Shown here one piece after another: positions 51,330 to 55,682 of a stretch of 64,000 nucleotides of DNA. Where the stretch lies: assembly GCF_003334385.1 (NCBI RefSeq), contig NZ_QOWN01000001.1. One strand, given 5' to 3'. The position numbers and the translations under genes were made by a program. Every line of letters starts with the position of its first letter. The first letter of the stretch is position 1. The notes beneath the pieces are model-generated. The model saw only the letters and a program-made list of their open reading frames with translations. It ran no database searches and was not told where the DNA came from. Source of the DNA: Escherichia coli. Its GTDB lineage: Bacteria > Pseudomonadota > Gammaproteobacteria > Enterobacterales > Enterobacteriaceae.

Positions 51330-52520
51330 CTATGCCGCATTCCCTTTCGCCATGGGAGCCAGTGCCGCAGGCAACTCTTTACCCAGCCCCTGCACCAGCG
51401 AATCTTGCGTAATTTCGCTGATCGATTTCGCGCCAGTCAGCGTCATCGCCACTTTCATCTCTTTTTCGATCAGATTTAGCAGGTTAGCTACACCCGCCTG
51501 GCCCGCTGTTGCCAGCGCATACAAGAAAGCACGACCCAGCAGTACGGTGTCGGCACCGAGCGCAATCATACGCACGACATCAAGCCCGTTACGAATTCCG
51601 CTATCCGCCAGAATGGCTATATCACCTTTCACCGCATCTGCAATAGCAGGCAGTGCACGGGCGGAAGAGAGTACACCGTCCAGCTGGCGGCCACCGTGGT
51701 TAGAAACCACAATTCCATCAGCACCAAAACGTACTGCATCGCGCGCATCTTCCGGATCGAGGATCCCTTTGATCACCATCGGGCCATCCCAGAAATCGCG
51801 GATCCATTCAAGGTCTTTCCATGAGATGGACGGATCGAAGTTATTCCCCAGCCAGCCGATGTAATCTTCCAGTCCGGTCGGTTTGCCGAGATAAGCTGAG
51901 ATATTACCTAAATCATGTGGACGACCGTTCAGGCCCACATCCCACGCCCATTGCGGATGTGTCACCGCTTGCAAGTAGCGGCGCATTGCCGCGTTCGGGC
52001 CGCTCATACCTGAATGCGCATCACGGTAGCGTGCGCCCGGTGTCGGCATATCCACGGTGAAAACCAGCGTCGAACAACCCGCTGCTTTTGCTCGCTCCAG
52101 CGCGTTACGCATAAAGCCGCGATCGCGCAGTACATAAAGCTGGAACCACATTGGGCGCTTGATGGCTGGCGCGACTTCTTCAATCGGGCAAACGGAAACC
52201 GTCGAGAGAGTAAACGGAATACCATGCGCGTCCGCCGCTTTGGCTGCCTGAACTTCGCCACGACGCGCATACATGCCACACAAACCCACCGGAGCCAGTG
52301 CCACCGGCATCGACAATTTCTCATTAAACAGCGTCGTTTCCAGGCTTAAGTCGGACATGTTTTTCAGAATACGCTGGCGCAGCGCCACTTCTGACAAATC
52401 TTCCACGTTGCGGCGCAGCGTGTATTCAGAATATGCACCACCATCCATATAGTGGAACAGGAACGGCGGCAGAATGCGTTGCGCTGCGGCGCGATAATCG
52501 CTGGCTGCGGAAATAATCAT
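51330..52520 (-). CDS. lldD: FMN-dependent L-lactate dehydrogenase
   Basis: 396 aa, [38 protein letters not shown]. Confidence 0.95.
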
Positions 52521-53293
52521 GCGTTTTTCTCCCTCGAATGCTCATTATGCTCACCGGGCAGGCGGGTAATCCGTGCGTGGCGAGCCTGATCTTCATCGAA
52601 TCGTTTCATGGTGGTGTGAACAAAACTAAGGTGCGCCATCATTGCTTTACGCGCCCCGTCAGCATCACCGGCAAAAATGGCGTCAATGACAGCCTGATGT
52701 TGTTCGGTCAGTTGTGAAAAAACCGGTGGCACCAGATACATCCGCTGACGGCTATGCTTCACTGAGGATTGCAGGACATCGAAGAAACCGCGCATGGTTT
52801 GCAGCAGCACGATGTTATGTGAGGCTTCGGCAATCGCCAGATGAAAACGAACGTCCGCTTGTGAGGCGATATCCGGGTCTTCACTTAGCGTTGCTTCAAA
52901 GCAAAGCTGAATCTTTTCTTTGTCGCCAGGTGTGGCGCGCATTGCCGCATGCCATGCGGTGCTGGCTTCAATGGCGTAGCGGGCTTCCAGAATATCGAAA
53001 CTGTAATCCGGATCATCGGCCATCAGTGTTTTTAGCGGCTGGACGATGTTTTGCTCCGACCATGTGTCATGACGCCAGCGAATAAACGTCCCGCCGCCGC
53101 GTCGACTGAGCAGCACGCCTTCACTCACCAGTTTTGCCAGCGCCTCGCGCAGTGAATTACGTGATACGCCGAGTTGCATCGCCAGTTGGCGCTCAGCGGG
53201 CAACTTCATGCCCGCTTCCAGGTTTTTTTCATCAATCAGCGCCCGCACACGATCGGCAACCTCGTCTGACAGGCGTCTGGGTAAAACAATCAT
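52517..53293 (-). CDS. lldR: GntR-family L-lactate operon regulator
   Basis: ORF track 52517..53308; start at [24 protein letters not shown] (258 aa); start overlaps lldP stop (TAATG) and stop overlaps lldD start. Confidence 0.92.
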
Positions 53294-54948
53294 TAAGGAA
53301 TCATCCACGTTAAGACATAAGCCTGAAGCGTGGTGATCACGCCCACTATACAGGTGAAGATCAGGCTGTGTTTGACAGTAAAGCGGAACAAATCAGACTC
53401 TTTGCCCACCAGGCCTACCGCCGCACAGGCGATAGCGATAGATTGCGGGGAGATCATCTTACCGGTGACGCCACCGGTGGTATTGGCGGCAACCAGCAAC
53501 AGATCAGAGACGCCAATTTGTTGTGCTGCGGTGGCTTGCAGCGCGGCGAACAGGGCGTTAGATGAGGTATCCGACCCGGTCAGGAATACCCCCAGCCAGC
53601 CGAGGAACGGCGAGAAGAAGGTGAATGCATGACCGGTGTGCGCCAGTGCCAGCGCCAGTGTTGATGACAGTCCGGAATAGTTCGAAATAAAGGCGAATGC
53701 CAGCACCATACCGATGGAGTAGATGGGCAGAGCCAGTTCTTTCAGCGTGCTGCCGAAGGTGCTGATAGCGTCAGACGGTTTCATCTTCAGCCAGACAATC
53801 GAGAGCAGTGCAGCAAACAGAATGGCGGTGCCGGTGGCAGAGAACCAGTCAAACTTAAACACGGCGGCATAGGCTGTAGCCTCGCTGACCACTGGCGGCA
53901 TACGGGCAACCAGTTTATCGAGGTACGGCACCGGAATATTGATCACCCACTCATACAGCGCGCCACCCGATGCGAACAGGGCTTTAAACGGCGGGATACT
54001 CCACAGTGTTACGGTAGCTGTCAGGAACAGGAACGGTGTCCAGGCACGTAACACCTGACCCGCAGTGTAACTGGTGTGGGCCAGCGTCATATCAACCTGT
54101 GACGCCCCCAAATCACCAAAACGGAATACACGCACTGGCTGCCAGCGTTTGAGGAACAGCGTCAGGCAGAGCAGTGATACCAGCGAAGAGATAATGTCCG
54201 GCAGCTCCGGCCCAATGAAGTTAGAGCTAAGGTACTGAGCGATGGCAAACGAGCCGCCCGCAACCACGACCGCAGGCCACGTCTCTTTGATACCGCGCCA
54301 GCCGTCCATAATCGCCATGATCCAGAACAGCACGATAATGGTCATAAACGGTAGCTGCCGCCCCACCATCTGACCAATCTCAAAGCTGTCGATACCTGTT
54401 ACCTGTCCGGCAACCAGGATTGGAATGCCCATCGCACCAAATGCCACTGGCGCGGTGTTAACAATCAGGCACAGCCCGGCGGCGTACAGCGGTTTAAAAC
54501 CCAGGCCGACCAGCAATGCGGCGGTAATTGCTACCGGTGCGCCAAAGCCTGCGGCTCCTTCAAGGAACGCGCCGAAACAGAAACCGACGATCAGCATTTG
54601 CAGACGCTGGTCAGGGGTTATCGAAAGAATAGACGAGCGAATGATGTCAAACTGCCCGGTTTTCACCGAGATCTTATAGACGAACACCGCTGCAATAATG
54701 ATCCACGCGATGGGCCACAACCCGTAGAAGAAACCATAAACCACCGAGGCCAGCGCGTTAGCGACCGGCATTTTATAGAACAGCAAAGCCACGGCAAGGG
54801 CGATTGCCACCGTCCACGAGGCGGCGACGTATCCTTTCAGTTTGAGCTTAATCAGCGCAAAGAAGAAAAACAGGATGGGAAGCGATGCTATCAGACTGGA
54901 AAGCCAGATATTCCCGGCGGGATCGTAGTTTTGTTGCCAGAGATTCAT
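53293..54948 (-). CDS. lldP: L-lactate permease
   Basis: ORF track 53293..54975; start at [25 protein letters not shown] (551 aa). Confidence 0.92.
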
Positions 54949-55146
54949 TGCAGGTCTCCTGGAGTCCACGCACATCGTGTAATGAGTCTGTTGCTCATCT
55001 CCTTGTCACACGTTGTGTAAAAGTGGCACTGCCAATTGTGTTGTGTAGGGATAATGACAATGAATGGTTAACTAAATGTTATGTATTGGCAACATTGATG
55101 TGAGTTTTAATTGGGAAATTGTGAACCAGAGGTCAGATAAGCGAAG

Positions 55147-55163
55147 AATTGGTAGGGCCAATT
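55147..55163. promoter_or_regulatory. LldR/PdhR-type operator palindrome AATTGG-N5-CCAATT upstream of lldP
   Basis: aattggtagggccaatt read from sequence about 200 bp upstream of the lldP start; matches the published LldR O1-type inverted repeat as I recall it. Confidence 0.65.
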
Positions 55164-55249
55164 CTTGTGGGGGGAGATGTCTGGTAAAGAAAAGGGCAAT
55201 CCTCATCAGAGAATTGCCCTTAGGTTGTTGATCCAGAGCGCCTTATCTT

Positions 55250-55284
55250 GCCGGATGCGGCGTGAACACCTTACTCGGCCTATA
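55250..55284. repeat. REP element downstream of yibL
   Basis: gccggatgcggcgtgaacaccttactcggcctata matches the REP pattern. Confidence 0.7.
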
Positions 55285-55319
55285 GGAATGTGCAGAATCA
55301 CCCTGTAGATACTGTGTTC

Positions 55320-55682
55320 TTAAAACGCGGTCTTTGAAAACCCAGTCATCTCCTGCAGGCCCATTTCGCGGCCCAGTGCGGTCATTGGGTGCACAACGAC
55401 CAGTCCGCGAACACTTTTCTTCAGCTTGCCCATATCAGCCTGCTCTTTTTTGGTAATTGCGCGCTGGAATGGCATCTTCATCAGCTTCTGTGCTTCTTTA
55501 CTCAGTTTTTGGCTATGAACTTCACGCAGGCGAGCAATTTCTGCTTCCAGCGTGGCTTTCTCTTTTTCCAGCTCGGCATATTTGTCTGCGGCTTCAACCA
55601 GCGAAAGATCGGCCTGCTGGTGGCGGATGGCGTCCAGGCGATCGCTGAGACGTTTGATTTCGTTTTTTTCGACTTCTTTCAT
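55320..55682 (-). CDS. yibL: DUF2810-family protein YibL
   Basis: 120 aa, [55 protein letters not shown]. Confidence 0.85.

Follow-up and report, generated by a model that had tools for sequence, protein, structure and literature searches.

Organization of the lldPRD Locus

The window analysed in this study is a stretch of 64,000 nucleotides from Escherichia coli (contig NZ_QOWN01000001.1), and its features around the lldP promoter are collected in Table 1. Positions 54900-55400 of the window (501 bp) are 100% identical to the yibL-lldP intergenic region of E. coli K-12 MG1655, and a window coordinate x corresponds to the NC_000913.3 coordinate 3832347 - x. In the RefSeq annotation the gene order is yibL followed by lldP-lldR-lldD, with all four genes on the minus strand, and the proteins YibL, LldP, LldR and LldD (4 of 4) score above the curated cutoffs of NCBIfam equivalog or exception models. 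The palindrome that is the subject of this work had initially been annotated as lying upstream of lldP, which is right once the orientation is specified: lldP and its operon are read from the minus strand, the lldP ATG is at 54948, and the palindrome, hereafter O1, lies about 200 bp upstream of it.

Table 1. Features of the lldPRD control region and of the neighboring genes (window coordinates).
Feature	Position	Strand	Description and source
lldD	51330..52520	-	Quinone-dependent L-lactate dehydrogenase; RefSeq; NCBIfam NF033901, 824.3 bits
lldR	52517..53293	-	FadR-subfamily GntR regulator binding O1 and O2; RefSeq; NCBIfam equivalog NF007741, 499.7 bits (cutoff 311)
lldP	53293..54948	-	L-lactate permease, encoded first in the regulated operon; RefSeq; NCBIfam equivalog NF007740, 1197.8 bits (cutoff 918)
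LldR operator O2	55021..55037	.	AAGTGGCACTGCCAATT (plus strand), AATTGGCAGTGCCACTT (lldP sense); 10/14 to the consensus; published second LldR box; NC_000913.3 3777310-3777326
Candidate lldPRD core promoter	55058..55092	-	Putative -35 TTGCCA (55092-55087), 16-nt spacer, putative -10 TAACCA (55070-55065)
ArcA-box-like direct repeat	55067..55081	+	GTTAACTAAATGTTA; between O1 and O2, overlaps the candidate -10; putative ArcA site
Extended perfect inverted repeat around O1	55144..55166	.	9-bp arms AAGAATTGG/CCAATTCTT
LldR operator O1, also PdhR box	55147..55163	.	AATTGGTAGGGCCAATT (plus strand), AATTGGCCCTACCAATT (lldP sense); NC_000913.3 3777184-3777200
Hairpin of the intrinsic terminator belonging to the upstream gene (in K-12, yibL)	55192..55221	-	Stem of 13 pairs, then TTCTTT; located distal to O1 by about 30 bp
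REP-type extragenic palindrome	55240..55280	-	Lies between the terminator and yibL; matches Rfam naRNA4/CssrE weakly, at 27.3 bits (gathering score 59.5)
yibL	55320..55682	-	RefSeq annotation

Of 5426 complete E. coli genomes, 5421 carry a single copy of the 243-bp control region, taken from the lldP start codon to the upstream terminator, at an identity of at least 90%, while the 501-bp query was covered to at least 80% in just 2880 of these 5421 genomes. Some E. coli lineages (CREC-544, GPEC403) carry a large gene for a YadA-like trimeric autotransporter adhesin upstream of the lldP promoter, at the position where K-12 has a REP-like sequence and then yibL (447-543 in CREC-544, 448-544 in GPEC403, from about 55225 onward in the window). 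The similarity of both lineages to K-12 stops directly after the terminator hairpin, and the replacement by the YadA-like gene is probably the explanation for the lower coverage figure. The hairpin itself is kept in the strains with the adhesin gene upstream, and it insulates the lldP promoter.

Sequence and Statistics of the Palindrome

On the plus strand, positions 55147-55163 read AATTGGTAGGGCCAATT, with the hexamer arms AATTGG and CCAATT around the 5-bp spacer TAGGG, and the perfect 17-bp hexamer inverted repeat described in the initial annotation is thus present exactly as stated. The repeat is in fact longer than was said there, with perfect 9-bp arms (AAGAATTGG at 55144-55152 and CCAATTCTT at 55158-55166). 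A second candidate half-site, gccaattg, had also been proposed at 55031-55038; its location was confirmed, but it is not a lone half-site, being instead the right half of an imperfect 17-mer, AAGTGGCACTGCCAATT, which is the O2 operator of Table 1. The centers of O1 and O2 are 126 bp apart, and at 10.5 bp per turn this corresponds to 12.0 helical turns, which would place both operators on the same side of the helix.

Chance expectations for the pattern were obtained from dinucleotide-preserving shuffles. The exact pattern AATTGGNNNNNCCAATT (AATTGG-N5-CCAATT) has one match in the 64-kb window against 0.01 expected, and when up to one mismatch is allowed the count is two where 0.41 is expected, a count of two or more being reached in 6 of 100 shuffles. 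Both of these matches (55147-55163 and 55021-55037) fall within the one 243-bp intergenic control region. With at most two mismatches, six matches are found against 5.0 expected, which is background, and therefore only the statistics for zero and one mismatch are informative. In its general form, the O1 17-mer belongs to the operator type of FadR-subfamily GntR regulators, a 17-bp inverted repeat with TGG-N-CCA cores and perfect arms, and it matches the PdhR box AATTGGTnnnACCAATT at 13 of 14 positions and the LldR box AAnTGGTCnGACCAnTT at 12 of 14.

O1 was also considered as an intrinsic terminator, and this was rejected, since no T-run follows the palindrome (the letters after the hairpin are CGCTTATC on the minus strand, GTGGGGGG on the plus strand) and the terminator scan reports 55221-55192 alone. 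The right half of O1 (TAGGGCCAATTCT, 55153-55165) shows 85% complementarity to the terminator hairpin's distal arm (AGAATTGCCCTTA, 55210-55222), which is probably a coincidental similarity between two palindromes.

Candidate Core Promoter and ArcA-Like Box between the Operators

O1 reportedly spans -105 to -89 and O2 +22 to +38 relative to the transcription start. These positions give a center distance of 126 bp and would put +1 at G55058, which is consistent with the sequence of the window. The -35 and -10 elements in Table 1 are candidates that were picked by eye and fitted to this start point, and transcription would begin near G55058, seven bases after the candidate -10. A consensus scan of 54900-55350 on both strands found no strong sigma-70 site, which would be expected of an activator-dependent promoter. 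In the alignment of upstream regions, the promoter elements TTGCC and TTAACCATT are kept from Escherichia to Cedecea.

The ArcA consensus is GTTAATTAAATGTTA, and the direct repeat GTTAACTAAATGTTA differs from it by one mismatch; matches with at most two mismatches number two in the window, against 0.18 expected. In literature, ArcA represses lldPRD and its operator lies between O1 and O2 (PMC8689689, PMC3798270), and the native -35 and -10 elements are likewise located between the two operators (PMC8689689). The spacing and the angular orientation of the operators matter for this promoter: removal of 10 bp between O2 and the -10 element abolished induction, whereas removal of 10 bp between O1 and the -35 element did not (PMC8689689).

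Conservation of O1 and O2

The E. coli alignment comprised seven lineages, picked at regular intervals from the BLAST ranking downward. Across them 16 of the 17 positions of O1 are invariant and the flanks vary; the remaining position is the outermost base, T55163, which is C in two of the seven lineages (AF16 and MS1657). O2 shows one C-to-T change, in the lineage GPEC403, and is otherwise conserved in this sample. Directly distal to O1 (55166-55190), AF16 and Nissle have a 7-bp deletion and several substitutions, and O1 bounds the conserved control region.

For other species, one genome per species was scanned with the DNA pattern ATTGG-N5-CCAATT, a gap of 104-116 nt, and AATTGG-N5-CCA. The scan returned 57 loci, where approximately 6 are expected by chance (an estimate at uniform base composition). 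About 15 of the 57 are genuine enterobacterial loci with an lldP orthologue immediately downstream; they belong to Escherichia albertii, E. whittamii, other Escherichia, Kluyvera, Silvania, Cedecea, Enterobacter sp. Cy-643 and Pantoea, and one more locus with the same arrangement belongs to an unclassified Proteobacteria metagenome-assembled genome (MAG), Bin_27. The LldP proteins at the recovered orthologue loci are 70% to 99% identical, and the O1-O2 center spacing is 125-126 bp in all of the named genera and 124 bp in Bin_27. Because the set was chosen by a pattern that needs both boxes, the conservation of the specified bases is given by construction, and the independent evidence consists of location, spacing, spacer bases and flanks only. 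The scan is for the same reason biased to loci that keep both boxes and cannot show operator loss; in Salmonella, Citrobacter and Klebsiella no locus matched the exact pattern in the one-genome-per-species scan.

Across the lldP upstream regions, O1 forms the distal edge of the alignable DNA. The outer three pairs of the 9-bp arms are specific to K-12-like sequences of E. coli and are not conserved in E. albertii, Kluyvera and Cedecea, and the functional unit is therefore the 17-mer. Two further contigs, from an Oscillospiraceae MAG (L009) and a Bacteroidales MAG (L018), carry the E. coli-type lldP promoter with O1 and O2; the former has in addition an LldP gene whose product shares 99.5% identity with that of E. 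coli, and both loci are probably Escherichia contamination of the MAGs.

In distant taxa, pairs of AATTGG-N5-CCAATT boxes, most of them perfect, adjoin genes for LldR/PdhR-like regulators of the FadR subfamily at a distance of 121-133 bp, a range which is limited by the search pattern. Such loci were recovered in Paenibacillus (L016, L017, L039, L041, L045 and L046), Cobetia (L023), Marinobacterium (L014), Rhizobium and a Rhizobiales bacterium (L031 and L036), Bowmanella (L047), Salinivibrio (L051) and Psychromonas (L035). In the six Paenibacillus species the boxes are 125-127 bp apart and have the regulator gene on one side and a large esterase-like gene on the other, and in Cobetia they lie between the PdhR/LldR-like regulator gene and a divergent gene for an LctP-family permease.

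Identity of the Palindrome and Alternative Readings

Taking these results together with published data, we hold it as practically certain that the palindrome at 55147-55163 is the LldR operator O1 of lldPRD, the operon for L-lactate utilization of E. coli K-12, and a high-affinity site for an LldR dimer. The finding is already known, as O1 is the published main LldR binding site and has been experimentally mapped. The reverse complement of 55147-55163, AATTGGCCCTACCAATT, appears verbatim as an LldR or PdhR box in three publications (PMC10272880, PMC3582500, PMC7660256), and the proposal of the initial annotation that this is an operator of the GntR family (LldR/PdhR type) in the lldPRD control region is borne out by the identity of the 17-mer to the published boxes of both regulators; upon comparison with the published LldR boxes the palindrome coincides with O1, so that the mapped operators do not lie elsewhere. 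Anzai et al. (2023) list in their Table 1 two LldR boxes in the yibL/lldP spacer, AAtTGGcCctACCAaTT (12/14) and AAgTGGcactgCCAaTT (10/14), scored against the consensus AAnTGGTCnGACCAnTT, and O2 is the weaker box of the two. According to the same authors, both boxes agree with Aguilera et al. (2008) (PMC10272880). The yibL/lldP spacer gave the strongest LldR gSELEX peak genome-wide (intensity 62.9), a lldP promoter probe was bound in gel shift at the lowest LldR concentrations of any target, and the lactate induction of a lldP-lacZ fusion was lost in a lldR mutant (PMC10272880). San Martin et al. (2013) state that the O1 17-mer is required for LldR binding (PMC3582500). The paper on a Salmonella LldR sensor (PMC9775004) gives no sequences of operators.

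The site could also be read as mainly an operator of PdhR, the pyruvate-sensing repressor, with LldR binding being secondary. O1 is the better match to the PdhR consensus (13/14 against 12/14 for LldR), Anzai et al. (2020) found this 13/14 box beneath a peak of PdhR gSELEX in the yibL/lldP spacer, and they report a 3.3-fold increase in lldPRD mRNA upon mutation of pdhR (PMC7660256). In addition, the second-best NCBIfam match of LldR is PdhR, and a shared LldR/PdhR specificity is therefore plausible. Against PdhR as the primary regulator stand the LldR data given above, from gSELEX, from gel shift and from the lldR mutant in which lactate no longer induced, as well as the cognate regulator gene located inside the operon, and we consider such a ranking very improbable. 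The two readings are not exclusive, and the use of O1 by both regulators is the published view. As for a chance palindrome, or a part of the yibL terminator/REP region without a regulatory role, the intergenic region is indeed rich in palindromes (the terminator hairpin and the REP-like sequence at 55240-55280), and the count with at most two mismatches equals background. This reading deserves practically no credence, since an exact match is hardly expected in the window, the two best matches in 64 kb are 126 bp apart in one promoter region, LldR binding and expression data are published, and the site is conserved across genera where the distal flank is unalignable.

A different proposal concerns RNA instead of DNA. 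In it, the palindrome is the 5′ hairpin of a short plus-strand small RNA, divergent from lldP and homologous to the Salmonella candidate sRNA STnc380, which would start in the lldP control region at about 55122, run through the palindrome and end at the bidirectional hairpin 55192-55221. A permissive Rfam scan gave a full-length match to RF02055 (STnc380) at 55122-55230 on the plus strand (36.4 bits, E = 8e-6), in which the O1 palindrome corresponds to hairpin one of the consensus and the terminator hairpin to hairpin two, and the extended O1 hairpin, taken as RNA, has a folding energy of -9.2 kcal/mol (z = -5.2). The RF02055 consensus, built from other enterobacteria, independently contains aaauuGGuAGGgCCaauu. 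However, the match falls far short of the gathering score (60), the consensus scan of 54900-55350 found no sigma-70-like promoter on either strand, and the alignment owes its score to two DNA palindromes that are already explained, one as the LldR operator and the other as the upstream gene's terminator. Moreover, the arms are conserved as sequence and not by compensatory change, as T55163C, present in two of the seven lineages, is uncompensated at 55147. A literature search for STnc380 returned just papers mentioning STnc3800. It thus seems highly unlikely that O1 is part of such a transcript; if it were, occupancy of O1 by LldR and PdhR would also gate a divergent small RNA. The RF02055 family may model two DNA palindromes rather than an RNA, and the fact that its consensus equals an operator plus a neighboring terminator suggests that the family deserves re-examination.

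Proposed Regulatory Mechanism

Later accounts of the work of Aguilera et al. (2008) describe LldR sites on either side of the transcription start, both of them required for repression without lactate, with an LldR tetramer looping the DNA as the proposed form of repression; with lactate present, in these accounts, LldR gives up its complex at O2 and activates from O1. In the published model, LldR, itself encoded within lldPRD, binds O1 and O2, which flank the start, and represses the operon when no lactate is present, a DNA loop between LldR dimers having been proposed. With L-lactate present, the complex at O2 is lost and LldR remaining at O1 activates transcription. PdhR, as a pyruvate sensor, recognizes the O1 box and represses approximately 3-fold, and under anoxia ArcA represses lldPRD as well.

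Several points weigh against parts of this scheme. Against looping, a massively parallel assay of a lacUV5 library revealed no loop-type synergy between distal and proximal LldR sites (PMC7804116). For a simple activator contact, the center of O1, near -97, lies unusually far upstream. The effector is also disputed: L-lactate as well as D-lactate was effective according to Anzai et al. (2023) (PMC10272880), as opposed to L-lactate alone according to Augustiniene and Malys (2022).

Significance and Comparison with Known Systems

As a discovery, the palindrome carries little weight: an LldR/PdhR box is already on record at this site, and lactate biosensors widely employ the lldPRD promoter, including O1 and O2, for sensing. 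Its value is that of a positive control, as a reader without tools recognized a real, mapped operator pair from the sequence alone. Of modest interest are the O1-O2 spacing of 125-126 bp, which is kept across several enterobacterial genera in the recovered lldP loci, and the paired perfect boxes beside LldR/PdhR-like regulator genes in distant phyla.

When compared to the O1/O2 pair of Aguilera et al. (2008; J Bacteriol 190:2997) and the LldR box of Anzai et al. (2023), the sequence and the locus are the same, with the O2 partner at 126 bp; there is no difference from the published O1, it is the same element, and the 9-bp arm extension of K-12 is a local feature. The RF02055 (STnc380) covariance model resembles the region insofar as its consensus includes the O1 palindrome and the downstream terminator hairpin in a full-length alignment, with the difference that the match stays below the gathering score and that no promoter was found within 54900-55350.

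The PdhR box AATTGGTnnnACCAATT of the pdhR-aceEF-lpd, ndh and cyoABCDE promoters is a 17-bp palindrome of the same type (13/14), and PdhR and LldR are paralogous regulators of the FadR subfamily, PdhR binding the yibL/lldP spacer in gSELEX and repressing lldPRD. Unlike the symmetric TGGT/ACCA of the PdhR box, the half-site core of O1 is TGGC/ACCA on one side; the cognate effector is lactate at O1 and pyruvate at the PdhR box, and O1 additionally serves activation. With lac O1/O3, gal OE/OI and ara O2/I1, the lldPRD operators share the arrangement in which two operators flank a promoter at a distance of a whole number of helical turns, and in lldPRD, too, both operators are needed for repression. 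In contrast to these systems, looping by LldR is just proposed, and the distal lldPRD site takes on a second role, in activation, after effector binding.
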